Shown: in pieces, positions 10,685-46,990 of the stretch | How positions within the stretch are numbered: the stretch's first letter is position 1 | How the letters are laid out: each line of letters begins with the position of its first letter | Assembly (NCBI GenBank): GCA_963828495.1 | Contig: CAWHFJ010000014.1 | Location: forward strand, 105,538-169,537 | Direction of reading: 5' to 3' | Source of the DNA: Candidatus Omnitrophota bacterium | Lineage (GTDB): Bacteria > Omnitrophota > Gorgyraeia > Zapsychrales > Fredricksoniimonadaceae | DNA length: 64,000 nucleotides | Translations under genes and position numbers: made by a program | Notes under the pieces: model-generated | Seen by the model: the letters and a program-made list of their open reading frames with translations, nothing else | What the model was told of the DNA's origin: nothing | Database searches by the model: none

Positions 10685-10987
10685 TTATTGTTTAATCTCA
10701 ACATCGACCCCCGCCGGCAAATTTAATTTGCGCAAGGCTTCCACGGTCTTGGACGTTGGGTTGACTAAATCAATAAGACGCTTGTGCGTCGCTAATTGAA
10801 ATTGTTCGCGAGATTTCTTATCGATGACCGGTGAACGAAGAACCGTGTATAACTCTTTCTTCGTCGGTAATGGCACCGGGCCTAAAATTTGAGCGCCCGT
10901 CCGAATGGCCGTATCCACAATTTCCTGGGTACTCTGGTCAATTAACCGGTGATCGAATGCTTTCAGTTTTATACGTATTTTTTGCAT
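10685..10987 (-). CDS. rpsJ: 30S ribosomal protein S10
   Basis: 100 aa, starting [19 protein letters not shown]. Confidence 0.96.
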
Positions 10988-11002
10988 AATTAGTCTTGAT
11001 TA

Positions 11003-11053
11003 AGATCCTTCGCCAGTTGGCTTAAGGATGACACTAACATTTCGTCAGTGTCA
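11003..11053 (-). promoter_or_regulatory. two-hairpin intergenic RNA element, copy A (covers the tuf UGA stop)
   Basis: The mRNA strand reads UGACACUGAC-GAAAU-GUUAGUGUCA, a 10-bp stem that includes the stop codon. It is followed by UCCUUAAGCCAACUGGCGAAGGAUCU. A paralogous copy lies at 22938-22991. Confidence 0.55.
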
Positions 11054-12247
11054 CTTAATAACCTCCGTAATAACACCTGCACCGACGGTATGTCCGCCTT
11101 CACGGATGGCAAAACGCAATTCCTTCTCCATGGCCACCGGTGTGATAAGCTCAACTTCCAAAATAACGTTATCCCCGGGCATGCACATCTCAACCCCCGC
11201 GGGTAATTGGGCGGTCCCGGTCACGTCCGTGGTACGGAAATAAAATTGCGGACGGTAACCCTTGAAAAACGGCGTATGACGACCGCCTTCTTCCTTAGTT
11301 AAGATATAGACCGAAGCTTTAAATTGAGTGTGCGGGGTGATGGAACCCGGTTTGGCTAAAACCATGCCGCGCTCCATATTATCTTTATCCGCGCCACGCA
11401 ATAACAACCCGACATTATCGCCGGCTTGGCCTTCATCCAATTCCTTACGGAACATTTCGACGCCGGTCACAACGGTCTTGGCAATAGCCGGACGTAAACC
11501 GACCACTTCCACTTCTTCCCCGACTTTTACACGACCGCGTTCAATACGGCCGGTCGCGACTGTTCCGCGGCCGGAGATGGAAAACACGTCTTCCACCGCC
11601 ATCGAAAATGGTTTGTCCAATTCACGCACGGGGGCGGGAATATATTCATCGACCGCTTTCATCAACTCAAGAATCGGTTTGGCTTTGCCTTCAAAATCCT
11701 TAGGATTATTCAACGCATCCAAAGCGCTACCCTTGATGATCGGGGTCTTGTCGCCGTCAAATTTATACTTTGTCAAAAGATCGCGGACTTCCAATTCGAC
11801 TAAGTCCAGTAATTCCTTGTCCTGGACCTGGTCACATTTGTTCATGAATACCACAATGCGCGGCACATTGACCTGACGGGCCAAAAGGATGTGCTCACGG
11901 GTCTGCGGCATCGGACCGTCACTCGCAGAAACAACCAGTATCGCCCCGTCCATCTGGGCAGCGCCGGTAATCATGTTCTTGATATAATCCGCGTGTCCAG
12001 GGCAATCAATGTGGGCATAGTGGCGGATTTCCGTTTCGTATTCAAGGTGCGAAATATTGATGGTGACACCACGTTCCTTTTCTTCCGGAGCGTTGTCAAT
12101 GGAATCATAGGCACGCGCCTGGGCTAAACCTTTATGACTTAAAACAGTGGTGATGGCCGCGGACAACGTGGTTTTACCATGGTCAACGTGACCAATGGTC
12201 CCGATGTTCAAGTGTGGTTTATTACGCACGAATTTTTCTTTTGCCAT
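11051..12247 (-). CDS. tuf: elongation factor Tu
   Basis: 398 aa. Contains [18 protein letters not shown] and NKCD. Confidence 0.98.
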
Positions 12248-12414
12248 AATTCTATCCTCCGTTGTAAAATGCCCAATAATTTCTGTTTAGTAACGTGGCG
12301 CCAAAGGCCAGATTAAAAATTTCCCTACTCCCCTCTATTTAAGACGCAGGGATACATGGTTGTATGGACTGCAAAAAATAGTGTATTCTCTATTTAAACA
12401 TTCAGGAATTTGCG

Positions 12415-14538
12415 TTAGCTCACTTTAGCAACGAAATCCTGACGAGAGCCGATAATTTTCTCGGCAATGCTGTTTGGAACCTGCGCATAAAACGAAGGTT
12501 CCATAGAGAATGATGCGCGTCCCTGCGTGAGGGACCGCAGCGCATTCGCGTAGCCAAACATTTCAGCCAAGGGAACATCCACCAGCGCGGTCTTAAGCTT
12601 GCCCCGGTTGCCGGTTTCCTTGATCTGTGCACGACGCTGCATCAAATTGCCAGTCACATTGCCCCAATAATCTTCGGGCACTACGATTTCCAACTTCATA
12701 ATCGGTTCCATAAATACGGAACCGGCCTTACGGAAAGCCTCTTTTATAGCATACTTTGCCGCTAATTGGAAGGAAATTTCGTCAGAGTCCACATCATGAT
12801 AAGAACCGTCAACTAACGTGGCAATAAAATCCGTCACCGGATATCCCGCCAACACGCCGTTTTGGGCGCCTATTTCTATGCCTTCACGGCAGGGCTTGAT
12901 AAATTCACGAGGAATAACTCCCCCTTTAATTTTATCTACAAATACAAAACCTGTGCCGGGCTCGCCCGGTTCCACATCAATGACCACATGCCCGTATTTA
13001 CCGCGACCGCCGCTCTGCTGAATATATTTACCGACGATATTACCGACTTTTTTAGTGATCGCTTCCTTGTAAGCCACTTCCGGACGGCCGACATTGGCTT
13101 CCAGATTATTTTCACGCTTCATGCGGTCCACAATGATTTCCAAATGCAGCTCTCCCATCCCGGAGATAATCGTTTGGGAAGTCTCGTGATCAAACTTAAC
13201 CCGTAAAGAAGGGTCTTCATCCAAGAATTTACGCAAAACCATGCCCATTTTATCCTGGTCCGCCTTGGTCTTTGGCTCAATGGCTAATGACACGACGGCC
13301 TCCGGCGGTTTTAAACCTTCCAAGACCATGGGCTTATCTTCGGCGCAAAGCGTGTCCCCTGATTTACTTTCTTTCAAACCAACAAAAGCGACAATCTCGC
13401 CCGTGGAAGCAGAGGTCACAATTTCCTGCTTGTTAGAATGCATAACAACGATCTTGGCAATCTTTTCATTCTTGCCGTTGGAAGAATTCAAATATATTTG
13501 GCCGGGCACGAAACGGCCGGCATAAACACGCGTAAAGAAAATCTTGCCTACATAAGGATCGGAAGCGATTTTAAACACCAGCCCCACCGGGGACTCACTA
13601 TCATCCGCTTTGCGGACAATAACTTCTTCTTTATTATCAGGATCGTAGCCTCTCTTGGGGGGGATATCTAACGGGGAAGGCAGAAAATCAACAATAGCAT
13701 CTAACAACATCTGTACGCCTCTGTTTCTAAGGGCGGTACCGGTCAAGACCGGAACGAATTTGGAAGCGATCACCGTGCGGCGGATGGCTTTCATCAATTG
13801 CTCTTTGCTGGGGTCTTTGCCGTTTAAAAACATATCCGCCATTTCATCGTCCACTTCAGCCAAACGTTCCACTAATGTATGACGATATTTAGCGGTTTTT
13901 TCTTTAAATTCTTCAGGCAAGGGCAAACGTTCAAATTCCATGCCGTCTGCATCTGTGTACTTAATGTACTGAGAGTTGATAACATCAATCAATCCCTTGA
14001 AGTTATCTTCCTGACCGTCATTGTAAACAATCCCCGCAGCATTAGCGCCAAAACGTTCATGCATCTCCCCGATGACACGGTCAAAATCAGCACCCATCCG
14101 GTCAATTTTATTAATAAACGCAATACGAGGCACATTATATTTATCCGCTTGACGGTAAACAGTCTCTGTTTGCGGCTGAACGCCGGAACAGGCACATAAA
14201 ACTATCACAGCCCCGTCCAACACCTTCAGAGAACGCTCAACTTCAATCGTAAAATCTACGTGGCCGGGAGTGTCGATAATATTGATACGGTGCTCCCTCC
14301 AAAAAGAGGTGATGGCCGCCGAGGTGATGGTAATCCCGCGCTCCTGCTCTTGGGGCATCCAATCCATGGTGGTGTTGCCGTCATCAATATTACCCATTTT
14401 ATGAATTTCACCCGTGTAATATAAAATGCGCTCTGTCGTCGTGGTCTTACCCGCGTCGATATGCGCAATAATACCGATATTGCGAAACATATGTAAGGGG
14501 ACTGTATTAGAAGAAGAGGCCATAGGCTTGACTACCAT
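12415..14538 (-). CDS. fusA: elongation factor G
   Basis: 707 aa. Contains [19 protein letters not shown] and DTPGHVDF. The ATG at 14538 overlaps the rpsG stop. An alternative ATG at 14523 ([10 protein letters not shown]) is equally plausible. Confidence 0.96.
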
Positions 14539-15373: not shown

Positions 15374-18300
15374 ATTTTACCATTTCTACTTGATTATATT
15401 CTTTCATTCCCGTCCCTGCAGGGATCAAATGCCCGACAATGACGTTTTCTTTAAGCCCACGCAAAAGGTCAACTTTACCAGATGCTGCTGCTTCTGTCAA
15501 TACCCTTGTTGTTTCTTGGAAACTCGCCGCCGAAATAAAACTCTCCGTCGTCAAAGACACTTTTGTGATCCCCAATAATAAGGGGGTCGCCTGGGCCGGT
15601 TTGCCTTTTTTCTTAAAGACCGACTCATTGGCCTTTTTGAAAATCATGCGGTCAACCTGGTCTCCCACCAAAAAATCGGTGTCGCCGGCATCGTCGATAC
15701 GCACTTTTTTAAGCATCTGGGCGATGATGATTTCAATATGCTTATCATTGATCCGCACGCCCTGCAAACGGTAGACCTCCTGGACTTCATTGAGAAGATA
15801 TTCCTGTAAGGCCTTGTCCCCGCACACACGCAAAATATCCTGCGGCACCACAGGCCCGTCTGTCAACTGCTGACCGGCAAAGACATGGTCGCCTTTGTAC
15901 ACATTAGGATGTTTGCCGTGAGGAATGGGATATTCCTTGGCGGTGCCTGTGGCACTTTTAACAATAATGGTACGCAATCCTTTTTTATCCTCACCGAATT
16001 CACACAGCCCGTCGATTTCGGCAATGACCGCCGAATCTTTGGGACGGCGCGCTTCAAAAAGCTCGGCCACACGCGGCAAACCGCCGGTAATATCGCGGGT
16101 CTTGGAAGCGCTGCGTGGAATTTTAGCAATCAATGCGCCCGCCGCGATCGTGTCCTTATCATTGACTAAGATGTGCGCCCCTGTGGGGATCGAATAAATA
16201 CCGACAATCTCCCCCTTATCGTCACTGATGATAATCTGCGGATGAAATTCTTGTTTATGTTCAACCACGACACGCTCTACAACCCCGGTCACGGGATTTT
16301 CTTCGCGCTGGTAGGTCGTCCCTTCGATCAAATCTTCGAAAGATACCCGGCCTTTGGACTCAGTGATGATGGGGATGGTATACGGGTCCCAGGTGGCTAC
16401 GACTGAACCTTTGGGCACATCCTGTCCGTCGGCAAAAGCCAATGCCGTGCCTTGAGGCAGCAGATGGCGCTCAAACTCGCGGCCGTACTCATTGTTAATA
16501 CTCACCGAGCCGTTGCGGTTAAGGACAATGAATTCTTTACCACGGGCCACGACCCGCAAGGCATGGTATTTCAAGGTGCCATCCTGCTTGGCTTTAATAA
16601 AGGACTGTTCGATAGTTCTGGAGGCCGTACCGCCGATGTGGAAGGTGCGCATCGTCAGCTGGGTCCCCGGCTCACCGATACTCTGTGCGGCAATGGTACC
16701 GACCGCTTCCCCAACCTCAACTATACGATGAGTCGCCAAATTACGGCCGTAACATTTGACGCAAACGCCTATCCCGGCCTCACAGGTCAACACCGAGCGG
16801 ATACGCACTTTTTCAACACCTAACTGCTCGATTAAATCCGCTTTCTCTTCCGTAATTTCTTCACCGGAAGCCACCACTTGCTGATCAGTGACCACGTCCA
16901 AAATATTATCCAGCGCAACCCTACCGACGATACGCTCTTTAAGGGACACCACCATCTCATCACCTTCAGTAATAGCGGCGACCGTGATCCCGTTGACCGT
17001 GCCGCAATCCAAAGCATTGACGACCATCTCTTGGGCTACGTCCACCAGACGACGGGTAAGATAACCCGCGTCGGCCGTCTTAAGGGCCGTATCCGCCAAG
17101 CCCTTACGGGCACCGTGAGTGGAGATAAAATATTCCAAAACCGTCAACCCTTCACGGAAAGAAGCGGTAATGGGATTCTCAATAATTTCGCCCGATGGTT
17201 TGGCCATAAGCCCGCGCATACCCGAAAGCTGACGGATCTGCAATTTGGAACCGCGGGCCCCCGAATCCGCCATGATGAACACCGGATTAAATTGGTCCAT
17301 TTTCTTAAACACCAAGTCAGACAAAATCTCCGTCGTATGGGTCCAGATGTCGATGACTTTGTTGTACCGCTCGCGTCCGGTGATAATACCCTTACGGTAT
17401 TGATCGTCCACTTTGAAGACTTCCTGCTTGGCATTGGCAATAATGCCCGGCTTTTCTTCAGGGATAGTCAAATCCGCCATGCCGATGGAAATCCCTGCTT
17501 CGGTGGCTTTGATAAACCCTAAAGTTTTCACAGCATCCAGCAGTTGCACCGTCTGGTTGTGCCCAAACCGTTTATAACAATCCGCAATCACGGAACCCAC
17601 GCGTTTCTTGTCCAGCAATTCATTGACAAAACCGTAATCCTGCGGTAAAACTTCATTAAAAAATACGCGTCCGACGGTAGTTTCAATAATAGTGGAATTT
17701 GTCCCTGTCGTTGCCTTTTCTGTTTTAGGCTTATCTTTCCCCACAGGTTGAATAACCATAGAAGGTTTTTCCTGGCCCCAGACACCCGTCAATAAACGTA
17801 ATTTGACACGCGCATGCAAATCCACATAACCGTCCGCATACGCCACCTTCACCTCGTCAATGGAGCCGAACAAATGATTTTCCCCACGAGCACCCGGGCG
17901 CTCCTTGGTCAGATAATAAAGGCCCAAAACGATATCCTGAGTCGGCGACACGATGGGACGTCCGTCCGCCGGAGAAAACAAATTGTTAACGGACAACAAT
18001 TGCAAGCGGCATTCAATCTGGGCCTCCAAAGACAGAGGCACATGGACCGCCATTTGGTCCCCGTCGAAATCCGCGTTAAATGCCGTGCAGACCAAGGGAT
18101 GCAACTTAATGGCCTTACCCTCAATCAATACCGGCTGAAAAGCCTGTATCGACAAACGATGCAAGGTAGGCGCGCGGTTGAGCATCACCGGATGGTCCTG
18201 AATAACCTCATCCAGGATGTCCCACACCTCAATCTTGGCGCGCTCCACCATGCGCTTGGCCCCTTTGATCGTATGCACAAACCCTTTTTCTCTTAATTTA

Positions 18301-19427
18301 CGGATGATGAAAGGTTCGAATAATTCCAGCGCCATTTTCTTAGGCAGACCGCATTGATGCAGTTTCAACTCCGGTCCCACGACAATAACCGAACGGCCGG
18401 AATAATCAACGCGTTTACCCAAAAGGTTCATGCGGAAACGCCCTTGTTTACCTTTAAGCATATCCGACAAAGATTTCAAAGGACGATTGCCTGAGCCTAA
18501 AACAGGACGGCCATGACGACCGTTATCCAAAAGCGCATCCACGGCTTCCTGCAACATACGCTTTTCATTACGGATGATAATTTCCGGAGCATTCAGATCA
18601 ATCAATTTCTTCAGACGATTATTACGGTTAATGACCCTGCGGTATAAATCATTCAAATCTGAAGTAGCAAAACGCCCGCCCTCCAACGGCACCAGAGGCC
18701 TAAGATCCGGCGGGATCACCGGCAAAACATCCAAAACCATCCATACCGGGTTATTCCCGGAGACCCTGAAATCTTCAACGATCTTCAACGTCTTGGCTAA
18801 TTTCTTAAAATTGGTCCCGTTAGGATTGGCGTCCGCAATATCCTTGCGTAATTTTTTGCACAAGGCACTCATGTCTAATTCTTTAAGCATCTCACGCACG
18901 GCTTCCGCGCCGATACGAGCTTTAAAAGCGCCTCCGTATTTAAGCACAGCTTCCTGGTACTCATCCTCGGAAAAAAATTGTTTTTTCTTTAAAGGAGTCG
19001 TCCCCGGATCGATGACCACGTATTCTTCATAATAAATCAACTTCTCCAAATCCCGCAAGCCCACCTGCATTAAGGCCGCCAAACGAGACGGGACCGCTTT
19101 GTAAAACCAAATATGCGTGACGGGACAGGCCAGATCAATATGCCCCATGCGCTCGCGACGCACCGAAGAGCGGGTCACCAAAACCCCGCAGCGGTCACAG
19201 GTAATCCCTTTGAATTTAATCCCTTTATATTTTCCGCAATTGCATTCCCAATCGCGCATAGGCCCAAAGATCTTCTCGCAAAAAAGCCCGTCCTTCTCGG
19301 GCTTTAAAGTACGGTAATTCAAGGTCTCCGCTTTTTTGACGGGGCCTTTGGACCAGGACATAATCACTTCAGGTGAAGCAATGCGGATCGTGATACGGTC
19401 TTGTTTCGTGATATCGACTTTACTCAT
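15315..19427 (-). CDS. rpoC: DNA-directed RNA polymerase subunit beta prime
   Basis: About 1,370 aa from the ATG at 19427 ([20 protein letters not shown]), with GAGGAA upstream. Contains [12 protein letters not shown]. The track ORF starts 30 nt further upstream, at 19457. Confidence 0.97.
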
Positions 19428-22400
19428 TTGCGCTCTTTTCCTCTTTTGGCTGTTCATCTTCGCCTACCGCTTTTTCCATGCGAATATCCAGACAAAGCCC
19501 TTGCAATTCTTTAACCAAAACGTTGAAAGATTCAGGAATCCCGGGGCTTAACGCCTGTTCCCCTTTGACAATCGCTTCATAAATACGGCTTCGTCCGGTG
19601 ACGTCATCAGATTTGACCGTCAGCATTTCCTGCAAGGTATACGCCGCCCCATAAGCTTCCAGGGCCCAAACTTCCATTTCTCCGAAACGCTGACCACCGA
19701 AATGCGCTTTACCGCCTAACGGCTGCTGGGTTACTAACGAATAAGGCCCAATGGAACGGGCATGGATTTTTTCATCCACTAAATGGTTGAGCTTTAACAT
19801 ATAAATATACCCAACCGTGACCTTCTGCTCCAAAGGCAGCCCGGAAAAGCCATCACGTACAACGGTTTTGCCATCCTCCGGTAAACCCGCTTCTTTAAGC
19901 AACGCACGGATTTCACCCTCGGTCGCACCGTTAAAAACCGGCGTCTCACAATAGAGCCCAAGTAATTTCGCAGCCCAGCCCAAATGGGTTTCCAAAAGCT
20001 GCCCCACATTCATACGCGAAGGCACGCCTAATGGGTTAAGCACCACGTCCACGGAACGACCGTCTTCTAAAAACGGCATGTCCTCTTCCGGCATGATGCG
20101 CGACACAATACCTTTGTTGCCATGACGACCGGCCATTTTATCGCCGACCTGCAATTTGCGCTTGGTGGCCACATACACAACCACGCGCTTGAGTACACCG
20201 GCGGGCAGTTCATCACCCCGGCGGATCCGATCGGTTTCCTGGAGTTCTTCTTCGGTCAGCTCCGCGATTTTGTCTAAATAAAAGGCCATAATTTCACGGC
20301 CTTCCGAGCCTTCTTCAATGTCATCCAGAGTCAATTTACCCACGCGCTTTTTATCGATCCCCAGCGATTTAGACAATTTCTCGTCTTTTTCATGGATAAT
20401 AATATCGATTTCCTGTTTATAGTATTCCCTGATTTTATTGATCGCCGAAGCTTCTTTGGTTTTGTCCTGTTTGGATTTACGGCCGCGTTCGTTGCGTTGA
20501 AAAACTTCCACGTTGACCACGACCCCTTCGATGCCCGGAGACAAAGTCAAGGACGTATCACGCACGTCGGCCGCTTTTTCACCGAAGATGGCCCGCAGGA
20601 GCCTTTCTTCAGGAGATAACTCTTTTTCGCTCTTGGGAGTCACTTTCCCGACAAGAATATCCGTGGCTTTAACTTCCGCTCCCACGCGCACAATACCCTC
20701 TTCGGTCAAATCCTTGAGAGATTCTTCGGCAACATTGGGGATGTCACGGGTGATTTCTTCATTCCCCAAACGGGTCTCGCGGCATTCACATTCAAAACGC
20801 TCGATGTGAATAGAAGTAAAGGCGTCTTCACGCACAATGCGTTCATTGATCAAAATAGCGTCTTCAAAGTTATACCCGCGCCACGGCATGAACGCGACCA
20901 ACGCGTTACGGCCGAGCGCCAAACGGCCATGTTGTGTGCCGATCCCGTCGGCAATCGTTTGGCCGGCTTCCACTTTCTGTCCGAGTTTGACCAACGGACG
21001 CTGATGCACACAGGTATTGGCATTAGAACGCTGAAAATTCTTTAAGGAGTAAACCGTCTTGCCGATCGTCACTTCACGGCCGTCGACTTTAGTCACCGTT
21101 CCAGCTTCATGGGCCAAGACAACAACACCGGAGTCCCGGGCTACTTTCTCTTCCATGCCCGTACCAACAAAGGCCACTTCCGGTATCATCAAAGGCACAG
21201 ACTGGCGCTGCATGTTGGAACCCATCAACGCACGGTTAGCGTCATCATGCTCCAAAAATGGAATTAACGCCGCCGCCACAGAAACCAACTGTTTAGGAGA
21301 AACGTCCATATATTCGACTTTTGCCGGTTTGACTCGGGGGAAATCCCCTTTATAACGGCAGGACACCAGGCTCTCCGTCAATTTACCGTCTTGATCCACC
21401 GCTGAATTGGCCTGCGCGATATATTTGTTCTGGTCCACATCTGCCGTCAGGAATTCAATCTTACGGGAAATTTTGCCATCAACTACTTTGCGGTAAGGTG
21501 TTTCGATAAAACCTAGTTCGTTCACACGGGCACAGGTGGTCAAGGACGCGATCAGCCCGATGTTCGGACCTTCCGGCGTCTCAATAGGACAGACACGGCC
21601 ATAATGGGTCGGATGCACGTCGCGCACTTCGAAACCCGCGCGCTCGCGGCTTAAACCTCCGGGCCCCAAAGCGGACATACGGCGCTTGTGGGTCATTTCG
21701 GAAAGCGGATTGACCTGGTCCATAAATTGCGACAGCTGGCTACGGGCAAAGAAATCCTGGATCTGATTAGAGAAAAGTCTCGAATTGATCAAATGATGCA
21801 CCGTCAAATTCTCAAAAGAACTCATTACAACCAATCGCTCTTTGATCGAACGTTCCAGACGCGCGAGACCTATACGTACCTGATTTTGGATCAACTCACC
21901 GACAGACTTGATACGGCGGTTGCCTAAATGATCAATATCATCACATTCCCCGTTACCTTCACGCAAGGCCACCAAATATTTAATAACCGCAACCACCGTC
22001 TCAATGTCCAGCACGCGGTTGTCCATCGGCACCGTAGTATTTAACTTGCGGTTGACTATGTGACGGCCGACCTTGGAGAGATCATAGCGCTTGGGATCAA
22101 AAAAGAGACGGAAAAACAGAGTTTCAGCCACTTCCACCGTCGCCGGTTCAGTCGGGCGCATCTTACGGTAGAAATCAAGCAAGGCCTCTTCCTTAGTCGT
22201 GGTATGGTCTTTCTCAAGGGTATTTTTTAATTTATCAAAACAGTCCCCTAACATCTTTTGCATATCTTCCAGGGATGAGAGACCCATGATGCGTAATATT
22301 TGAGACGCCGGGAAATTACGGCGGCGGTCCACATAGGCAATCAACACATCATTCAGATCATATTTGATCTCAAACCACGCCCCCCTTGAGGGGATCACAC

Positions 22401-22881
22401 GACCGTAATAAATACTTTTACCTGTCGGATGGGTTTCCTCTTCAAAAGAAACACCCGGCGGACGCTGGATCTGGGAAACAACGACACGCTCATCGCCATT
22501 GATAATAAAAGTCCCCGTATCCGTCATCAGAGGGAAATCACCGAAATAAACTTCCTGTTCTTTGATGTCGACCGGTGTAATCAGGCGTAATTTGACTTTC
22601 AAGGGAGCGGCATAAGTCATCCCTCTGCGCTGGCACTCATAACGGGAATATTTTTCTTTGCCGATATTATAACTGATGTATTCCAGGCGAATCTGCGCAT
22701 CGTAGCTTTCCAGAGGGAAAACTTCGCGGAAAACCTCTTCTAACCCCTGATCCTTGCGCTTGTCCGACAACACGTTTCTTTGCAGAAACTCTTCATAAGA
22801 AAGGGTTTGAATATCAAGAAGCTTGGGCAGTTCGAAATTATCCTGAAACTTACTAAAATCTCTGACTTTTAGCTTTTCCAT
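19420..22881 (-). CDS. rpoB: DNA-directed RNA polymerase subunit beta
   Basis: 1,153 aa. Contains [15 protein letters not shown] and [12 protein letters not shown]. Confidence 0.97.
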
Positions 22882-22899: not shown

Positions 22900-22924
22900 A
22901 AAAGATGATATAAAATCATCTTTT
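22900..22924 (-). promoter_or_regulatory. AU-rich hairpin in the rplL-rpoB spacer (possible attenuator)
   Basis: AAAAGATGA (22900-22908) pairs with TCATCTTTT (22916-22924): a 9-bp perfect stem with a 7-nt loop. On the mRNA strand the 3' arm runs into UUUUGAUUAUU, 18 nt upstream of the rpoB ATG. Confidence 0.4.
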
Positions 22925-22937
22925 GGTTTTAGGTTAG

Positions 22938-22991
22938 AGATCCTTCGGCAGTTGCCTAAAGGCATGACATTCAACATTTCGTTGAACGTCA
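22938..22991 (-). promoter_or_regulatory. two-hairpin intergenic RNA element, copy B (covers the rplL UGA stop)
   Basis: The mRNA strand reads UGACGUUCAAC-GAAAU-GUUGAAUGUCA, an 11-bp stem that includes the stop codon. It is followed by UGCCUUUAGGCAACUGCCGAAGGAUCU. This is a paralogue of the element at 11003-11053. Confidence 0.55.
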
Positions 22992-23396
22992 CTTCAGCTC
23001 GACTTTAGCACCGGCAGCTTCAAGTTTTTTCTTAAGCTCTTCCGCTTCGGCTTTAGGAACAGATTCCTTAACGGTCTTAGGCGCTGATTCCACCAATGTT
23101 TTGGCTTCAGCCAAACCTAAATTAGTGACCGCGCGCACCTCTTTAATAACACCGATCTTTTTGGCAGGATCAACTTCCTTCAAAATGACATCAAAGGATG
23201 TTTTTTCCTCAACCGGTGCGGCAGCGGCAGCAGCTCCTGCGCCCGCAGCGACGGCCATAGGGGCCGCAGCCTGAATCCCAAGCCTGTCTTCCATGGCTTT
23301 GACCAACTCGGCTAACTCCAAGACGGTCAAACCAGTGACTTCCTTGTAAATCCCCTCTAATTTGGGGGCTAATTCTTTAACGGCTGTGTCAGACAT
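22989..23396 (-). CDS. rplL: 50S ribosomal protein L7/L12
   Basis: 135 aa. Has an Ala-rich hinge and ends ..[11 protein letters not shown]. Confidence 0.96.
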
Positions 23397-26313: not shown

Positions 26314-27501
26314 TTATTTGAGTTTTAAAAAACGCCTTTTCCCGACCTTCAAAACCCCTGGAATGACAAACCAATTCTCATCTTCAATGACTTGTCCTTC
26401 ATGGGTCACGGCTTTTTCTTTAAGCAAACGGCGGCCCTCATTCTTAGTGGCCACTATTTTTGTAACTGCCAATATATCAATAAGTTTTTCCCCTGGCACA
26501 ATTTTATGTTCCGGAATATCTTTTGGAATTTGGTGCTGGCTAAATGTTTTTTCAAAATGCTCACGTGCGCTATGCCCTTCGGCTTTGGGATAAAACATTT
26601 CCACCACCCTCTGGCCCAACTGCAATTTCGCTTCTTTAGGGTGCATTTTTTTAACCGCGTCTAAATCGGCTTCCGTAAGGATCTCATAATAACGCAGCAT
26701 CAACTCATCGCTGATCGACATGATTTTGCCAAAAATCTCATCAGGCTCATCATTAATACCAATGGTGTTGCCCAAAGACTTGCTCATTTTATTAATGCCA
26801 TCCGTGCCTTCCAACAAAGGCGTCATCAGCACGACCTGTGGTTTTTGACCGTACGCCTCCTGCAACTGCCGGCCCATCAGTAAATTAAATTTCTGATCGC
26901 TGCCTCCCAATTCCACATCGGCCTTCAAATGCACGGAATCATAACCTTGCAGAAGAGGATAAATAAACTCCAGCAAACTGATTTCTTTGGCCGTTTCAAA
27001 ACGTTTTTTAAAATCCGCGCGGGCCAGCATCTGGGCCACCGTCAAATGCGCAGACAATTCCAGTAAATCCTGGGGGGTAAGTTTATTAAGCCAGCGGCTG
27101 TTAAATACGACTTCGGTTTTTTTAGGATCGAGGATTTTAAAAACTTGGGCCTCGTAGGTGCGGGCATTCTTCTGAATATCCGCCATGGACATTTTCTTGC
27201 GCAGTTCATTACGCCCCGTGGGGTCTCCCACCTGGGCCGTAAAGTCCCCGATCAAAAAAATCACCCGGTGTCCCAAATCCTGGAACTGTTTCATTTTACG
27301 CAGCAAAACCGTATGGCCTAAATGAATATCCGGTGCGGTAGGGTCAAAACCAGCTTTAATAACTAAGGAGCGGCCTTCTTTGAGTTTGGCCTCAAGGTCA
27401 CCCAAGCTGATGATTTCAGTGGTGCCGCGGGAAAGCTTATGGAGGGCATCTTGAATGGACATAGGAAGAAAGTAATAAGTGACTGAATGACCGCTCGCCA
27501 T
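26314..27501 (-). CDS. tyrS: tyrosine--tRNA ligase
   Basis: 395 aa. HLGH (HIGH) and KMSKS motifs, the class-[14 protein letters not shown] motif, and a C-terminal S4-like domain. An alternative start is the ATG at 27462 ([10 protein letters not shown]). Confidence 0.94.
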
Positions 27502-29189: not shown

Positions 29190-32100
29190 TTATACAGGAA
29201 CTGTAGGCGCAGCCGAATTCTCCTGTGCACCTAAAAACTGCCTTAAATCCGTCATCGGCTGGATATTGATAATGACCGGCACAAAGCCCGGGGCGTTACG
29301 TAACTGTTCAAGCATGGCAGGGTCAAGGCGGAATTTGATCCCTGTTCCGGCATTTTGTGTCTGTAAATTCATATGAGCAGGGGTTAAGTCAATACCGCCG
29401 GTATTTGTCTTCATCGCCCGATTTGATTCTTGCCCGGCCGATTGGGTGCTATTCCTATTTTTATCATAATTTTCAACAATTTCTTTTAAAACAGCTCCCC
29501 ACCCTTTACCGCTATCTTCATCATAAACTTTAATAAACTCTATGTCCGGCATCATTTGCTTGAATGTATCAATAAGATGGTAATAATTTGGCCCTACGAC
29601 TATATACTTAACATCACTCATAGTATTAATAGCTCTCTGATCAACCCCGCCAATCAACATAAAACTTCCCATAAAAACCGATTGCAGGGGTGCCTCCTCA
29701 ATATTCCCAATAGGACCAGTATAAAAAGCTCGCGTTGGATCGATCCCATATTTTAGAAAATAAAGAAATTTCTCCAACCGTTGCTGTTTTGCTACACCAT
29801 GCGCTTGAAATCTTATTCCTATCTCATTAATAGGACCATGGGCCCGCATTTCTTCTTCGTCATTAAATCTCTGTGTGGGGCCTTGAATACGCTGATTCAA
29901 CGAATCTACTAAATGACGGATCTCTGCTTCTCTATTATTTTTTGTCTCCAGAAAAGCTGCAATTTCGCCTTTTTTATCGAGTTGGGACCACTCTGCTCTC
30001 ATGCCGTATTGGTACAATTTAGCTATATCGGCTTCCTCCAAATCATCTCTGCGGTCAATGTCACGAAAAGAAGTAAAATCATCCAAAACGAAAACAGGCT
30101 TTCCCTCCGGGGACATAAAAACTTGAAATTGTGAAGGGTAAAAATTCCTTGCTGAAGGCACCACCTTATCTCCTATTAAATTACTTAAAACATTTATTAA
30201 TTCACGGATCTCCTCAGAGTTTAACGATTCTTTTTCACTAAGTCTTTGTCCATGGATCGCCTTCACCCTAAGATAATAATAACCTTCTTGATTCTCCTGC
30301 CAAGCTTCTGTCTGTCCATAACCAATCACACCAGGCAATAAACCTTCTTGTTGAGCCAGGCCGTATGAATGTAATAAGGATCCCAAAGGATCATACGTCC
30401 GGCTTTTTCGATCAGAAAACAAATAAATATCTTCACCATCGTGCCGGAAAATATATAAACCGCCTCCTTCATAAATTAAACTACTTCTCAGATCATGGCC
30501 ATCAATGACAAGGTCTGCACCGTTTTGGCCAAATACAACTTTTCCTTTGATTGGATTAAACGGTATTTCATCATTTAAACGCACGGCCATCGCCTGATTC
30601 ACTATAGATTCCAGTTCCGGGGACACTGCGGCAGAATGGCTTACTTGTTCAATGGCCATCCTCGAAAATGATGAACCATTAAGGTCTTTAATGATCGTTT
30701 GATGTAAATCATAATATGGCCCTAACTCTGCATCACGATACCCAAGCTTTTGATAAAATCTGTCAAAATTAAGCCTGCCGACTTGTTGAGCATAAAATTG
30801 TTCTGCTCCTTCAAAATACGCTACCCGTTCAGCCAATCCCATCAAAGAACTTCCAATACCCTTATATCCGCCTTCATAAGAGCTGGTAACTTGGGGATCA
30901 ACAAAAATGGCATCAGAAGGTTGATACCGGTCAGTCCAAGCATCGGATGGGAATCCTATATCCATTAATGCAAAAATTTTCTTCAGGTTTCTGTTTATTG
31001 TGAAATGAACATATCCGATTTTTTGACCATCTAAATACACATCAATTAAATACCGATGACGATTGGATGTCTCTTTTTTCTGATACTTAAACTCAAAATG
31101 AGTGCCATCGCTGGCCGTTAGCGTGATCCCTTCAGAACTGCCCCTAATCCACCTCTGTACGGTCTCATTAATTTCAGCATCATGCGTATTCTGGATCATC
31201 GCCTGATCAGCAGTTACTTTATCAATTTTTTGTTTTGCGGCGACGGGGTCATTCATCCAGTCCTTACTGCCTTCCTCCTGGATCATCGTCCTTGCCAGAA
31301 GCAGGGCTTTTTCGACACTTCCTGCTTTATGAACAAAATATCGAGCTAAATACAACCCGATCGAATGGGAGATGATGTAGGGATCTTCCATTTTAACTAA
31401 ATCAGGTCGGCTTTTTAAGAATGCCTCTTGGGAGAGACTTTGATTAAAAAAGTCTCTTCCTATTTGGAAAAAAATAACCGGGATATCATTACCGCCTGCA
31501 ATTCTAGCCAATGCATCAAACATCTCATGAACACTGGAGTCTTTCTTGTTTTCCCTACCTGCCAGATTTTCAAACATTAAATGCCCTACTTCCGAAATAA
31601 CACCCCGCTCTCCATTATCGGGATCTATATTCAACAGATGCCTGGAACCAATCCGGTCATCCTCTAGGAAGGAACTGCCTTTCCCAAAACTAAGGTCATC
31701 TTCCGCTGTTCGCAGGGCGATATCCCAAAATTGATCTGACATGGACAATACATCAGACAATAAGGATTCGAGATTAATATTATGAGGATCCGTTGCAAAT
31801 TGCAGGCCTTCTGTCTTTAACATTAAAATATCTACTTCTAAACTCATTCTTTGCTCTTCAGAAATACTTTGCCCCTGATAGAATATATTCAGATAATTTA
31901 GAACTGTTTGAAGGAATTCTCCCTGTTTTTTTCTTATTCCAGTCGTATTTGATTTAACGACGAGTGCTGAATTCTTTATTTCTTGAATCCTGACATTATC
32001 CAGTCCATATAAATGAGCAAGCCAATCGATAGCATGTTCCACTTGGATTTTTAATTCCTTATCTTCCAAAGTATCTACGTCGCCATGGCGCATTATGAAA

Positions 32101-35100
32101 TCTTTCGATAACTTGACCTTTCGGGTTTTCCCCCGTCTTAGAAGATAATCAAAAGCCGTGCCGCTTTTTAATAACCCGTCTTTTTGTTGATTATATAAAG
32201 AATTTAATTCTGCCCTTAAATTTGGAGGCATTGCCACAACATCATTTTCATCTTGGGTGGCTTGAGAATCTTTCCATGCCACAAATTTTGATTCTAATTC
32301 GGGAAATAAAGTGCTCACAGCATCTGTTAGACTGTTGAGAGTGGATCTGCGCCGGATTTCAGCCCCTTCCAGCGCTCTTTTAACCCTATAAAGATCCTCT
32401 TCTATCGGATGGCCCCTTCTTAGAAATCCTGTAAATGTTTGAGGATCTTTAAAAACACTCAGAGGTATATTTTGTTGAGGGGAAGAGATCTCTGCCCGAT
32501 CAAGAGCCAATTGGGCGCTGTCCCCTGCATCGCCTAAAATCTTTAAAACAGTTACCCCCGGGAATATACTGTCCACATGTTTATGTCTGTTCCGCTCCAA
32601 AATAGAGTCCGCAATGCCATCCGGACTATCGTCCTCAGAGATGACATCCTTTTTCAATTCCGGGATCCCTGATGTCATAATCACAAAATCTCCCTCATCA
32701 ACTGGAATGTTTATTGATTCTATATCTCCTGAAACACTTTTACTCTCATCATACGCTCTAAGCTCACCGGATTTCTTAAAAACATATATACGATTCATGC
32801 TTTTATTCTGAACAATCGTAACAAATTGATGACCCTCCGGATCTTGCCAAGCCCCGGCAAGGTTGATATTGACTACTGTACGCAGTGCAGTCGGATTAAC
32901 TTTATAATAACGTCCTATCTGTTCTTCCCCGGCTTGAACAGCTTTTACCAGAAAACCTTCAATCTCTTCCAGGCTTTGGGACGCCTTGGCTTTTTGCCAT
33001 TCGCCCAATTCAGAATTAAAATATTCTCCAATGATATTGTAAACCTCTTTTGTTAATACAACACTGCTTCCGCTAACCAATTTAGCCCGCCCTTGCACCC
33101 TGTCAACATTCCCGAAAGTTTTTCTTAATTTCCCCAGTTCTTTAAATACCCCCAAAATGTACGATGAATCCGGTACTGCCGTCCATTCTAAAGTGGCATC
33201 CTGATTACGACTGCGGAAATATAGTCTGTATTTGCCCTCACCGGTGGGATCAACCCGGATCCTAAACTTTTTGCCTTCTTCATGCTTCACCCCTAATGAT
33301 ACATCTTCAAAGGATTCAGTAGATTCCTCACCTTTAGCTCGAAGCTCCATCCTTACCACTCCCTCTTTAACCCTAATAATATAAACACTATCACCAACTA
33401 CCACTTTGACTCCTTTTTTACCGAAAGTGACAAAATCAGACCTCTTTCTTGGAATAGAAAGCCATTGAGCAACTTCTTGTTGGGCTTCAAGGGCCCATTT
33501 GTTCCTCTCGCCTGCTTTCCAGAACAACTGTGCCCCCCTGTCAGGAGTATCTAATACTTTTAATTTTCCTGCTAATCCTGCCTTCATCATATTTTTTTCA
33601 GGGAAAATTATGTTTAAAGCAATATGATCCACCTGAACAACCCCACCTGGTACAATAGGATAAAGAAAAACTGGAACTGTTGGAAAATATCGATGATTCC
33701 TATAATAATTCCACATCATTTCATCATTGCCGAAGTCTTCTTCATTAATCATCGCCCGATCAAGAGCCAATTGGGCGCTGTCCCCATTTTTCCCGTTTTC
33801 TCCAGCCTTATTTCCCCTTCTCAATATCCGCGCAATATTCCCTAAACGCCATTTTGAAGTGCCGGGTTCTACAGTTAAATTTACGTTATCAGCAGATGAT
33901 GAAATAAATTTTGCTCTAAGTTGGGGAGTTGCACCAATAATCCTTAAAACGAATTCTTCTGCCACATATCGACATGTGCTCCTATATTCTTCCACTACTT
34001 GTGAACCCTTTTCTCCCAATTTCTTCGCCTCAGCCGGGCTTTCCATTAATTTTTGTAAATTAGCCCAGCTAAAATTTTTGATGGCTTTTCTTTTCTCTAG
34101 CTCTGTTTTTAGTTCTATATTATTCCCCCAATCTCCTGGAAGAACCAAAGTCGGGACCCCTGTAACGGCCGGCTCCGCAACATTCCTATCATGACCCAGC
34201 ACGTTTACAGTGCCCAAATTATATAATGCAGGAAGATCTCCCATAGTATCAACTACTAAAATATTACTATCTTTCACATCAACACCATGAATCCCCATAT
34301 TAGATTCCTGATGCTTTAGAGAGTCTTCCAAATAAGCCCAAGAATGATGACTGCCATAACGTTCCTGCAACCTTCTTCTTGCTTTGAGATCGGGAGGCTT
34401 AACTACAACTCTAAAAGCAAGGATGACCAAGGGACGCTGTCCTGCAGGAAGATCTCTATATAACAACGTTTCATTATTTTCTCCCTTTGTTGTCAGCGAA
34501 TCATATGCTTGCATAATTTCATCAAGCTCATCCATCATCCTGGGCGAACCGACAACCATTACTTTCCTTTCTAAACTTATACCTAAAGATTTTTTTATAC
34601 TATTTATTTTATATGGAGGGAGTTTTTCCGGAAGATCAAATTTTAACGGAACATTAGGCGCAGAAGCATAAGTCCGTCCCACAAAGGAATATACTGATAT
34701 ATCCCCGTACGTCCTAAAACCTACTTGAATTTTCTCTTTCTTAAAATCCCGAATCTGCTTTATAACGCTCCCCGGAGAAACTGTTTCAACGCTCTGTGGG
34801 TTCGTTATTTCATCATCATAATACAATGTTATGTTCTCTTTTTGAATACCCATTTCCCTTATAAGCCCTCTTGCAGCATTGATAGAGGCTACCCTATCTA
34901 ATTTTATAGCTAATTTTACCGAACTATCATTGATCGTCATTTTGATTTTTTGCAGCATACGATCAAGGCAAATTTCCGGATTATCAAGAAACCCCGAATT
35001 TTCTCTTAACAATGCTTTTTCAATAAAATTTTCCCCTCTTCCTTCTTTTTTATAAGCAGGATCCTCGGCAACGCCTCTGTTAAGAGCATCAAATATACGG

Positions 35101-36695
35101 AATAATTCTTCCAACTGCTCAACTTTCCAGTTAGCTATTTCATATGCGGCAGCAGGTTCATCATTTAATATCGCAAGCATTTTTAAATAATAAGATAGAC
35201 GGCTTTCCGAAAGCTTTCTTCCATATACCTTTCGGAACATAGCCTCAACTTCTTCTCTGGCAACCCCTCCTTCTTTGGCAACAAGCCTTTGCGAAAAATT
35301 GCTTAACCATTCCTTAAATTTCCCATAACTAGTTTGTTCTCTACTTTCACTCTCTTGTCCTTCAGTATTTATTGCCTGCTTTTCGACCAATGGAACTTTA
35401 TTCTCTATTTCAATCTTCTTTTCTGAAGTGCGGTTAAATATTCGATCTATAACTTTTTTAATTGAAAACATGGCAAGATCTGCGCTCACTATGCTGTACT
35501 TTTGAACATCATCTGACGTCGAAGCTGGAAGATTATGAACTATCTCCATCGCAAAATTAGACTTTAAATTAGTTTCCCCGTTCATAGCAAAATCAAAATT
35601 GACTCCCCCCGAAAAATACTTTCTGGGGATCACTTGTTGGGTCAGTAGATCCGGTTCTTCTTTGATATAGTTGTAAACGCCTTTTTTAAATGCCTGTAGA
35701 TACCGCTCATAAATCTTCTGTTTTTCCTGCGGATCATCAATATTTACACCTGCGACTTTATTTTTGTCTGAATATATTTGAGACAAAATGCTATCCTTAA
35801 CTTTCTTTTTGTACCATGTGGCTAAGATGAGACTGTTGTAGGCCTGACGGAGTTTGGCGAAATTTTTGTCCTCATTAACCTCTTTGGTTAATTCGGGGAT
35901 AACAATTTCGCGGACGATTTGGGAGCCTAAAGCATTGATGCCTCCCCCTTCATGGGAGAGTGGATCATTATCCGTATGTTTTTTTAATGATAAATAATCC
36001 TCCTCCAGCATCACCTTTAATTTGCTTTCAACCACATACGCCGTCCCGGCTTGGGCATTTTCGTACACAACAGCTTTTTCTGGCACTATCCATACCTTAT
36101 TAAACGTATTGACCGGAATATTGGTTGTGCCAAATTTTTTGGCTGCTTCTTCATAGATGCGTTTCCAAAATTTCTTGCCTGTTTTATCTTCAGGATAAAT
36201 CAAACTCGCTGTGATCTGCTTAAGCATGTAGTCTTCTGCTAATAAATCCCGGCCCATTTCGGTTAGGCCAAAGCTTTGGGGAATGATACGGTCTTTTTCA
36301 TATGGGCTTAAATTGACCCACAGGTCTTTTTCGGGAATGGTTAGGCTGGCAAGGAAATACTTTATTAGTTTTGTGGCTTCCTCTTTCAAACTCCCTCTAT
36401 CCCCCTCTTTAACTAAATAGGGGGAATCTCCTTGATCTAAAATAAAATCAAAACGGAATGGGTTATCTGAATTTACTTTGATGCCTTTTAATATGGGAGG
36501 ATTAAATTCCGGGCTTAAATGAACCATGACCCCGGGGGCCGGCAAACGAAATTCCCCGCCTGCCCCACCTGTGGTGGGGCCTGTCCACGAAGCATTTTGA
36601 GCTTGGGCCGTCGGTAGTGGACCCAACGCATTAGACAGAAAGGCGAGGATTATAACTAAAGAGATAACTTTTCTTATATCTAAATTTTCTCCCAT
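29190..36695 (-). CDS. giant (2,501 aa) multidomain protein of unknown function with a signal peptide
   Basis: A single uninterrupted 7,506-nt ORF. The N-terminus MGENLDIRKVISLVIILAFLSNALGPLPTAQAQ looks like a Sec signal peptide. Embedded motifs resemble a GT30/WaaA C-terminal half (PLKFD.., ILVVDTMGDLPALY, HDRNVAEPA) and a GNAT domain (GGYKGIGSSLMGLAE..FYQKLGY). The C-terminus is GGIDLTPAHMNLQTQ..PVIINIQP..FLG. Confidence 0.9.
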   Translation of the reverse strand: MGENLDIRKVISLVIILAFLSNALGPLPTAQAQNASWTGPTTGGAGGEFRLPAPGVMVHLSPEFNPPILKGIKVNSDNPFRFDFILDQGDSPYLVKEGDRGSLKEEATKLIKYFLASLTIPEKDLWVNLSPYEKDRIIPQSFGLTEMGRDLLAEDYMLKQITASLIYPEDKTGKKFWKRIYEEAAKKFGTTNIPVNTFNKVWIVPEKAVVYENAQAGTAYVVESKLKVMLEEDYLSLKKHTDNDPLSHEGGGINALGSQIVREIVIPELTKEVNEDKNFAKLRQAYNSLILATWYKKKVKDSILSQIYSDKNKVAGVNIDDPQEKQKIYERYLQAFKKGVYNYIKEEPDLLTQQVIPRKYFSGGVNFDFAMNGETNLKSNFAMEIVHNLPASTSDDVQKYSIVSADLAMFSIKKVIDRIFNRTSEKKIEIENKVPLVEKQAINTEGQESESREQTSYGKFKEWLSNFSQRLVAKEGGVAREEVEAMFRKVYGRKLSESRLSYYLKMLAILNDEPAAAYEIANWKVEQLEELFRIFDALNRGVAEDPAYKKEGRGENFIEKALLRENSGFLDNPEICLDRMLQKIKMTINDSSVKLAIKLDRVASINAARGLIREMGIQKENITLYYDDEITNPQSVETVSPGSVIKQIRDFKKEKIQVGFRTYGDISVYSFVGRTYASAPNVPLKFDLPEKLPPYKINSIKKSLGISLERKVMVVGSPRMMDELDEIMQAYDSLTTKGENNETLLYRDLPAGQRPLVILAFRVVVKPPDLKARRRLQERYGSHHSWAYLEDSLKHQESNMGIHGVDVKDSNILVVDTMGDLPALYNLGTVNVLGHDRNVAEPAVTGVPTLVLPGDWGNNIELKTELEKRKAIKNFSWANLQKLMESPAEAKKLGEKGSQVVEEYRSTCRYVAEEFVLRIIGATPQLRAKFISSSADNVNLTVEPGTSKWRLGNIARILRRGNKAGENGKNGDSAQLALDRAMINEEDFGNDEMMWNYYRNHRYFPTVPVFLYPIVPGGVVQVDHIALNIIFPEKNMMKAGLAGKLKVLDTPDRGAQLFWKAGERNKWALEAQQEVAQWLSIPRKRSDFVTFGKKGVKVVVGDSVYIIRVKEGVVRMELRAKGEESTESFEDVSLGVKHEEGKKFRIRVDPTGEGKYRLYFRSRNQDATLEWTAVPDSSYILGVFKELGKLRKTFGNVDRVQGRAKLVSGSSVVLTKEVYNIIGEYFNSELGEWQKAKASQSLEEIEGFLVKAVQAGEEQIGRYYKVNPTALRTVVNINLAGAWQDPEGHQFVTIVQNKSMNRIYVFKKSGELRAYDESKSVSGDIESINIPVDEGDFVIMTSGIPELKKDVISEDDSPDGIADSILERNRHKHVDSIFPGVTVLKILGDAGDSAQLALDRAEISSPQQNIPLSVFKDPQTFTGFLRRGHPIEEDLYRVKRALEGAEIRRRSTLNSLTDAVSTLFPELESKFVAWKDSQATQDENDVVAMPPNLRAELNSLYNQQKDGLLKSGTAFDYLLRRGKTRKVKLSKDFIMRHGDVDTLEDKELKIQVEHAIDWLAHLYGLDNVRIQEIKNSALVVKSNTTGIRKKQGEFLQTVLNYLNIFYQGQSISEEQRMSLEVDILMLKTEGLQFATDPHNINLESLLSDVLSMSDQFWDIALRTAEDDLSFGKGSSFLEDDRIGSRHLLNIDPDNGERGVISEVGHLMFENLAGRENKKDSSVHEMFDALARIAGGNDIPVIFFQIGRDFFNQSLSQEAFLKSRPDLVKMEDPYIISHSIGLYLARYFVHKAGSVEKALLLARTMIQEEGSKDWMNDPVAAKQKIDKVTADQAMIQNTHDAEINETVQRWIRGSSEGITLTASDGTHFEFKYQKKETSNRHRYLIDVYLDGQKIGYVHFTINRNLKKIFALMDIGFPSDAWTDRYQPSDAIFVDPQVTSSYEGGYKGIGSSLMGLAERVAYFEGAEQFYAQQVGRLNFDRFYQKLGYRDAELGPYYDLHQTIIKDLNGSSFSRMAIEQVSHSAAVSPELESIVNQAMAVRLNDEIPFNPIKGKVVFGQNGADLVIDGHDLRSSLIYEGGGLYIFRHDGEDIYLFSDRKSRTYDPLGSLLHSYGLAQQEGLLPGVIGYGQTEAWQENQEGYYYLRVKAIHGQRLSEKESLNSEEIRELINVLSNLIGDKVVPSARNFYPSQFQVFMSPEGKPVFVLDDFTSFRDIDRRDDLEEADIAKLYQYGMRAEWSQLDKKGEIAAFLETKNNREAEIRHLVDSLNQRIQGPTQRFNDEEEMRAHGPINEIGIRFQAHGVAKQQRLEKFLYFLKYGIDPTRAFYTGPIGNIEEAPLQSVFMGSFMLIGGVDQRAINTMSDVKYIVVGPNYYHLIDTFKQMMPDIEFIKVYDEDSGKGWGAVLKEIVENYDKNRNSTQSAGQESNRAMKTNTGGIDLTPAHMNLQTQNAGTGIKFRLDPAMLEQLRNAPGFVPVIINIQPMTDLRQFLGAQENSAAPTVPV
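32494..32525. repeat. 32-nt exact direct repeat, copy 2 (within the giant ORF)
   Basis: gcccgatcaagagccaattgggcgctgtcccc is identical to 33754-33785. In frame on the minus strand it encodes GDSAQLALDRA (aa 1391-1401). Confidence 0.95.
33754..33785. repeat. 32-nt exact direct repeat, copy 1 (within the giant ORF)
   Basis: Identical to 32494-32525. Encodes GDSAQLALDRA (aa 971-981). The spacing is exactly 1,260 nt, or 420 codons. Confidence 0.95.
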
Positions 36696-46962: not shown

Positions 46963-46990
46963 TTTTATATTCCCTAAAGACCCTTCGGGG

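Follow-up and report, generated by a model that had tools for sequence, protein, structure and literature searches.

Copies A and B, two paralogous hairpin elements at the tuf-rpsJ and rplL-rpoB junctions of the analyzed DNA (a stretch of 64,000 nucleotides, hereafter the window), are probably recent insertions of an Ssn-type hairpin repeat, and their sequence and structure are probably conserved because a small GIY-YIG nuclease, encoded at another place in the genome, recognizes them as single-stranded DNA. Rather than a riboregulator specific to these junctions, the element is a dispersed DNA repeat whose kind is known. It represents a divergent variant of that kind, and it is placed precisely on stop codons. 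Comparison of RpoC, L7/L12, and EF-G showed that the window belongs to the Omnitrophota, where EF-G identity defines a tight clade (81-100%) and the next relatives are at 69%. The features concerned are as follows.

10685-10987, minus strand: rpsJ, coding for S10, with its AUG at 10987.
10988-11002, minus strand: 3' tail of copy A, UAAUCAAGACUAAUU, which reaches the rpsJ AUG (10987) and is missing from the empty sites of the relatives.
11032-11003, minus strand: hairpin 2 unit of copy A, within GUCAUCCUUAAGCCAACUGGCGAAGGAUCU, based on the sequence, the family pattern match, and family covariation.
11053-11029, minus strand: hairpin 1 of copy A, UGACACUGAC / GAAAU / GUUAGUGUCA, based on the sequence, the folds, and covariation.
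11051-12247, minus strand: tuf, coding for EF-Tu (398 aa), with the stop UGA at 11053-11051.
19420-22881, minus strand: rpoB, downstream of copy B.
22900-22924, minus strand: native AT-rich hairpin AAAAGAUGAUUUUAUAUCAUCUUUU, upstream of rpoB and separate from the inserted element.
22938-22968, minus strand: hairpin 2 unit of copy B, based on the sequence and the family pattern match.
22965-22991, minus strand: hairpin 1 of copy B, UGACGUUCAAC-GAAAU-GUUGAAUGUCA, based on the sequence, the folds, and covariation.
22989-23396, minus strand: rplL, coding for L7/L12 (135 aa), upstream of copy B, with the stop UGA at 22991-22989.

The first-pass annotation had described both copies as starting at a Lys-UGA stop with a 10-11 bp helix and a GAAAU loop. 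The two copies read exactly as quoted there (minus strand, gene sense), and the sequence and folds bear out this description. The copies are 90% identical across 62 columns, and RNA folding gave two adjacent hairpins per copy (-23.8 and -24.3 kcal/mol), with z-scores of about -5 and none of 200 shuffles equally stable. The helix interiors do differ yet remain paired, as had been noticed: between the copies, one pair of hairpin 1 is altered on both sides (C-G to U-A), a further C-G pair is present as a paired insertion, and two differences are one-sided and lead to G-U. The swap of flanks reported for the second part proved to be a single G-C/C-G exchange in hairpin 2, whose form in RNA is CCUU..GSC-AACU-GSC..AAGG in both copies. 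The fold z-scores, the similarity of the copies, and the compensatory changes indicate that the observation is real and not a product of chance. When folded as single-stranded DNA, the same strand gave z-scores of -4.9 and -4.3 and the complementary strand -3.7 and -3.4, and with DNA parameters both strands form these hairpins. Copies A and B were used to build a covariance model, which detected no third copy in the 64-kb window (next match 13 bits, E = 0.24). The model also had no match in 1.5 Mb of loci retrieved with RpoC, which came mostly from distant phyla, with two Omnitrophota-like loci among the matches listed.

In the predicted fold of copy A, the last tuf codons UUAAG (11054-11058) can pair with CUUAA (10999-11003) on the minus strand, which makes both hairpins part of a three-way junction; nothing comparable exists in copy B. 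A 395-aa reading frame at 26314-27501, considered as a second "tuf", was rejected because it is unrelated to EF-Tu.

Six relatives whose EF-G is 91-95% identical (L082, L083, L084, L205, L206, and L207) were compared over syntenic 20-kb regions. In L082, L083, L084, L205, and L207 the tuf stop overlaps the rpsJ start (AAGTAATG, AAGTAATGCAAAA, or similar), and in L206 the two genes are separated by an 8-nt spacer. In the window, 63 nt of element lie between the tuf stop and rpsJ. The element was found at tuf-rpsJ in none of the six close relatives, and because this site is empty in all of them, copy A represents an insertion of about 60-63 nt specific to the window lineage. The length of EF-Tu in the window equals that in most of the relatives compared; since its C-terminus is of unchanged length, the element starts exactly past the last sense codon. 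Judging from the sequences, the 3' tail of copy A also belongs to the inserted DNA. The empty sites of L082, L083, L084, L205, and L207 lack it, and a similar tail, UUAAUCAAGGAUUAGAU, lies 3' of the copy between rplC and rplD in L084. In a more distant relative, L002 (RpoC 64% identical), rpsJ directly follows fusA without tuf between them (11775-14207).

After rplL, the element is absent in L082, L084, L205, and L206, which have a different, shorter spacer. In this spacer, the rpoB-proximal hairpin alone is common to the window and the relatives. L083 contains a diverged two-hairpin analogue at the rplL-rpoB junction, which could indicate some persistence at that site. The rpoB-proximal hairpin is also present in L082, L083, L084, L205, and L206 with stems differing in sequence, for example GACCUAGUC...GACUAGGGGGUC in L082 and UUUGCCUUCGGCAAA in L084. 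It has A and U runs on its flanks, followed by a conserved UUAUUGACGGGACCAUAUGG, and shows compensatory changes of its own. This hairpin looks like a native rplL-rpoB attenuator or leader.

The relatives carry the element at other positions in the same operons. L084 has sense copies between rpsS and rplV (51.8 bits) and between rplC and rplD, each beginning at a UGA stop, and L082 has a sense copy close to the end of rplF. L083 has antisense copies between rplX and rplE and between rpsC and rplP. The window lacks the element at the sites filled in the relatives; for example, its rpsS and rplV overlap as AAATGATAGC. Because presence, position, and orientation vary among close relatives, the element behaves as a mobile or dispersing DNA repeat and not as a conserved regulator. 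Three pairs of filled and empty sites are compatible with insertion immediately before the original TAA or TGA. The rpsS-rplV pair fits a duplication of ATGA, a duplication of TGA, or no target duplication, and the other two pairs agree with an insertion between the last codon and TAA only on the assumption that small changes followed later.

Two of these relatives showed further peculiarities. The ribosomal-protein operon of L083 has many enlarged spacers, two of which contain the antisense units (18100-18270 and 19980-20130, minus strand of the locus). On their left these units share a longer flank, GAAAATTGGGCCTTTTGTC..., and they have an inverted AGATTCTTCGCT partner, which suggests, from the sequence, that they may form a second composite subfamily. 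In L082 (1645-9208), rpoB and rpoC were each called as two genes, probably owing to assembly frameshift errors.

The second hairpin is the unit of a large repeat family. Metagenome contigs were scanned with the exact pattern GTCAT-N0-1-CCT-N1-2-AG-N8-CGAAGGATCT, and matches were found in at least 120 contigs (727 kb among the matches listed) with a GC content of 0.32-0.69. Further copies and homologues, which the first-pass annotation had proposed to look for, exist in large numbers. The family unit, about 30 nt long, reads GTCAT-CCTGAG-stem/loop-CGAAGG-ATCT, and the subtype structure comprises an outer stem ATCCT/AGGAT, an internal loop GA/GA (or AA/G), a 3-bp inner stem that covaries freely, and a 4-nt loop. 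The unit of copy A is GTCAT-CCTTAAG-CC-AACT-GG-CGAAGG-ATCT, which shows the GTC tag, an AT...AT stem, and a C following the palindrome, and that of copy B is GTCATG-CCTTTAG-GC-AACT-GC-CGAAGG-ATCT, whose GTCATGCCTTYAG sub-variant is also present in the metagenome contig L113. The eight free positions of the pattern correspond to a 2-bp stem extension and the 4-nt loop. In 70 distinct units, the two free pairs are formed in 59 and 63, with both-sided changes in 30 and 23, respectively. Covariation of this strength did not arise in any of 500 shuffles and was far weaker in slid controls. Several of the listed contigs contain at least four units on both strands. Among the matches listed, 60 of the 117 fully flanked units have an inverted tail-to-tail partner within 110 nt (often AGATTCTTCGC..GCTCAGAATGAC), and 10 have a head-to-head partner. 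With inverted pairing this frequent, half of the units would be antisense in any transcript. Similar units are located on plasmids of the cyanobacteria Planktothrix, Calothrix, and Oscillatoria and of the acidobacterium Granulicella.

Judged by its sequence, the unit belongs, as a divergent variant, to the CGTC/TGTC-tagged REP superfamily, whose members are also called NTS or Ssn-related motifs (SRMs). It matches CGTC-tagged REPs and SRMs in its GTC tag, in the AT...AT ends of its stem, and in the C that follows. CGTC-tagged REPs, among them dRS3 of Neisseria and RPE-4 and RPE-6 of Rickettsia, have a CGTC or TGTC tag, A/T stem ends, and a short tail, and no dedicated transposase was found for them (Di Nocera, De Gregorio and Rocco 2013, PMC3733652). 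They have been listed from five phyla, mostly from Alphaproteobacteria (PMC3733652). The units described here resemble them in the tag (CGTC, often TGTC), in the complementary A and T at the first two stem positions, in the short unpaired tail, and in their inverted dimers and location downstream of coding regions. However, the known CGTC-tagged REPs have a continuous stem of 8-9 bp, a loop of 4-5 nt, and a CCA tail, whereas the window subtype has 5 bp, a 2x2 or 2x1 internal loop, 3 bp, a 4-nt loop, and a CT tail. In addition, the known dimers are mainly head-to-head, in contrast to the tail-to-tail predominance in our matches listed (60 vs. 10 of 117).

The likeness to the SRM/NTS group (CGTCATTCCCGCGMAVGCGGGAATCYRG; Chenal et al. 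2025, PMC11893778) extends to several features. The (C/T)GTC tag lies directly 5' of the palindrome, as gTGTCAT in copy A and aTGTCAT in copy B; GTCAT was fixed in our search pattern, yet it also occurs in the ssn-flanking units found independently. In SRMs the palindrome forms a hairpin of about 20-50 nt that starts and ends with AT, and the units agree with this (ATCCTT...AAGGAT in copy A and AT(G)CCTT...AAGGAT, with one bulge, in copy B), and a C lies just 3' of it (GGAT-C-T in both copies), as it does in the Spirosoma, Rhizobium, and Photobacterium units. Like SRMs, the units are about 30 nt long, multi-copy, intergenic, and often paired. Unlike SRMs, the window subtype has a stem broken by a GA/GA internal loop with an inner stem free to vary, its tail is CT and not CYRG, and the window copies add an upstream hairpin that pairs with the tag and holds the stop codon. 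The published SRM pattern, HGTCWYN(0-2)YYVSBRHN(0-5)WNVSBRGN(0-2)RNCYNB, matched none of 135 subtype units and nothing in the window, whereas the NTS consensus and the units of Rhizobium and Photobacterium are recognized by it. The first-pass annotation had not recognized the element as a named motif. It has no Rfam match; hairpin 2 is a known kind of repeat (CGTC REP/SRM).

The association of the units with ssn-like genes points in the same direction. SsnA is a 94-aa GIY-YIG protein that binds and cuts the NTS hairpin only as single-stranded DNA, not as RNA or double-stranded DNA, and its cleavage falls a few nucleotides upstream of the hairpin (PMC11893778). Cutting needs three bases (the GTC tag) before the palindrome, binding hinges on the C after the palindrome, which is the most critical base, and ssn genes are typically flanked by repeats in an SRM-ssn-SRM architecture (PMC11893778). 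Such exclusive binding and cutting of single-stranded DNA is documented only for the Neisseria and Wolbachia homologues (PMC11893778). On a Planktothrix plasmid (L208, NZ_LR882964.1), unit arrays lie on both sides of a 94-aa GIY-YIG gene. The protein was searched against the six-frame translation of all loci retrieved, and small GIY-YIG genes were found only in L208, L161, L182, L145, and L117; there were none in 1.5 Mb of unrelated control loci. CTGAG...CGAAG units, the subtype of the window, directly flank the small stand-alone ssn-like gene in L208, L161, L182, and L145. The small GIY-YIG proteins consist of a single domain, PF01541 alone. Homologues on Spirosoma, Rhizobium, and Photobacterium plasmids have GTCAT-headed hairpins as flanks, that of Photobacterium being the Neisseria dRS3/NTS sequence, and the hairpin flanking a Novosphingobium plasmid homologue is headed GTCGC, with the same GTC tag. 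Within the Omnitrophota, ssn-like genes are present in L216 (CP070780.1) and L117, flanked by GTCATTCC... units. The 64-kb window contains no GIY-YIG reading frame.

The arrangement of some of these loci deserves mention. In L117 (9080-9500), the ssn-like gene lies between mutS and mutL and is flanked by an inverted pair of GTCATTCCGGCGAAAGCCGGAATCT; this contig also has a composite copy after L27, and so carries two unit subtypes. In L208 (4300-5250) and L161 (170-600 and 1000-1300), two or three truncated heads (GTCATTCTGAG plus about 12 nt) precede full units near the GIY-YIG gene. The heads are regularly spaced and mirrored on the far side, with variable spacers of 25-30 nt, so that the arrays are superficially CRISPR-like. 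This pattern suggests nested insertion or slippage.

By analogy with the characterized members of the family, the unit would be recognized as single-stranded DNA by a stand-alone Ssn encoded elsewhere in the genome, and we infer that an Ssn protein of this organism would act on copies A and B. This recognition constraint, and not an RNA function at the junctions, would preserve the hairpin and its flanks. In this Omnitrophota lineage, the unit travels with hairpin 1, whose TGA lands just past the last sense codon and becomes the stop of the upstream gene. As the copies are transcribed within operons, their hairpins may well stabilize the upstream message. Such effects on RNA, namely a stabilized upstream mRNA and broken translational coupling of tuf and rpsJ, are plausible on the basis of position and folding, but they would be secondary and incidental, and they are not needed to explain the existence of the copies.

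The hairpin 1 module has the form TGAC-arm-RAAAT-arm'-GTCA and pairs with the tag of the unit itself. We collected 11 composite copies from 8 sources. In their alignment, which was fitted to the model so that the pairing and covariation counts are biased towards structure, 97.9% of cells were paired, 7 of 18 pairs were changed on both sides, and none of 500 shuffles reached the observed level of covariation; for hairpin 1 alone, 96.6% of cells were paired and 5 of 11 pairs were changed on both sides. The earlier view that the structure is selected and not fortuitous is sustained. In 10 of the 11 composite copies, the TGA of hairpin 1 is the in-frame stop of a real upstream gene, the genes being tuf, rplL, rpsS, and those for S18, L25, Prs, L27, SecA, an MTAP-like phosphorylase, and transketolase-N. 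The codon before the TGA is AAR or AAT in 9 of 10, and every downstream gene that could be read runs in the same direction. This placement suggests targeted insertion. At some junctions the spacer is long enough that selection by itself would not have confined the element to the stop codon, and a preference for the boundary between last codon and stop is implied. It is possible, though we put this forward only tentatively, that the composite is a distinct SRM lineage that integrates at the AAR|TRA boundary and supplies its own UGA within the hairpin. If this were true, the repeat could colonize even translationally coupled ribosomal-protein genes and leave the proteins unaltered, with uncoupling of the downstream gene as a side effect. 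For Ssn-associated repeats, it would also be the first case in which a target-site rule and insertion footprints are available.

The first-pass annotation had read the copies as an RNA element at junctions where expression steps between units (tuf to the S10 operon and rplL to rpoBC). According to this reading, a cis-acting RNA would be kept at operon junctions and set expression steps by blocking 3' exonucleases, serving as a processing site, or uncoupling downstream translation. Several observations agree with it: the window has only two copies, both in sense orientation and directly after highly expressed genes, and they form stable RNA folds. The stop codon lies within hairpin 1 in nearly all composites, ahead of co-directional genes where these are readable, and the insertion disrupts the tuf/rpsJ stop-start overlap of the relatives. 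REP-type repeats in general are mostly located downstream of coding regions and are plausibly transcribed (PMC3733652). We nevertheless consider this reading unlikely. The closest relatives lack the element at tuf-rpsJ (all six) and after rplL (four), copies lie elsewhere, and those of L083 are antisense within the same operons; half of the units among the matches listed have an inverted partner. Moreover, the flanks are conserved across contigs of diverse GC content, which fits protein recognition of DNA, although the sample was picked by an exact pattern and conserved flanks are over-represented in it. The family is documented to act as single-stranded DNA, and SsnA does not bind RNA (PMC11893778). 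No intrinsic terminator was reported at 10988-11053 or 22938-22991, where the tails are UUAAUCAAG and CUAACCUAA, a terminator-type U-tract is absent after the hairpins at both sites, and neither site resembles a promoter.

The remaining readings fare worse. Regulatory leaders and attenuators exist upstream of rpsJ and rpoB in model bacteria, and the position of the element upstream of these two genes could suggest a ribosomal-protein autoregulatory leader (of the S10-leader/L4 or L10-leader type) or an rplL-rpoB attenuator. We regard this as hardly credible, as the positions are not conserved in relatives with 91-95% identical EF-G, the same element follows S18, L25, Prs, L27, SecA, and others, it has neither a U-tract nor an Rfam match, and the hairpin before rpoB is a separate feature. 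A gathering-threshold search of the window against Rfam returned two tRNAs and nothing at the copies, and an E-value search of six repeat-rich loci returned only tRNAs and chance mir-239 matches on long palindromes. Very little probability attaches to a classical GTAG-type REP/REPIN moved by a RAYT (an IS200/IS605-like tyrosine transposase). The short palindromes, often in inverted pairs, their intergenic position, and their variable presence between relatives are shared with such systems, as are single-stranded hairpins bound by the protein whose gene they flank; the filled and empty sites are also compatible with IS200/IS605-type insertion beside a short target without target duplication. 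However, the tag is GTC(AT) and not GTAG, the genes found beside the units encode a protein of the GIY-YIG fold and not an HUH tyrosine enzyme, and SRMs are not known to transpose. CGTC repeats are reported not to flank tyrosine transposase genes (PMC3733652). Chance resemblance or a local duplication without wider meaning, to which the presence of only two copies in 64 kb might point, is refuted by the occurrence in at least 120 contigs, the 11 composites from 8 sources, and the strong covariation, and its probability is practically nil.

Elements like these mimic covarying structured RNAs, and they will be mistaken for riboregulators repeatedly unless they are recognized as Ssn-type DNA repeats. 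Among Ssn-related repeats, the CTGAG...CGAAG subtype has a very wide distribution but is missed by the search pattern published for them. Its insertions distinguish close Omnitrophota relatives within the most conserved operons of the genome, and the composite at stop codons provides clean pairs of filled and empty sites for working out how these repeats spread.

Several further candidates were considered and rejected, in most cases by eye. In-frame translations past the two UGAs have nothing in common, which disfavors read-through or coding. The core lacks the NGA and the fourth A of a hammerhead, and there is no 3-nt bulge ahead of the GA pairs as in a K-turn. The likeness of copy B to an integron attC (RYYYAAC/GTTRRRY) is just the palindrome. 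A Shine-Dalgarno role of AAGGA was dismissed on distance, as the start codons lie 18 and about 60 nt away. Looking up the sequences and peptide strings in the literature returned primers and unrelated text only.

Other repeats and hairpins were observed in the window. A hairpin GACCC-CGAA-GGGUC at 46975-46992 (minus strand) begins at the UGA stop of the reading frame 46991-47584, with the next frame about 13 nt further on; it has no GTCAT tag, and only the CGAAGG core is common with the repeat. Within the 2501-aa reading frame at 29190-36695, a 32-nt sequence recurs exactly, at 32494 and 33754. A 649-aa frame (56427-58376) contains, at 56560-57049, five direct repeats with 65-82% identity and a length of about 100 nt, which probably encode protein repeats.
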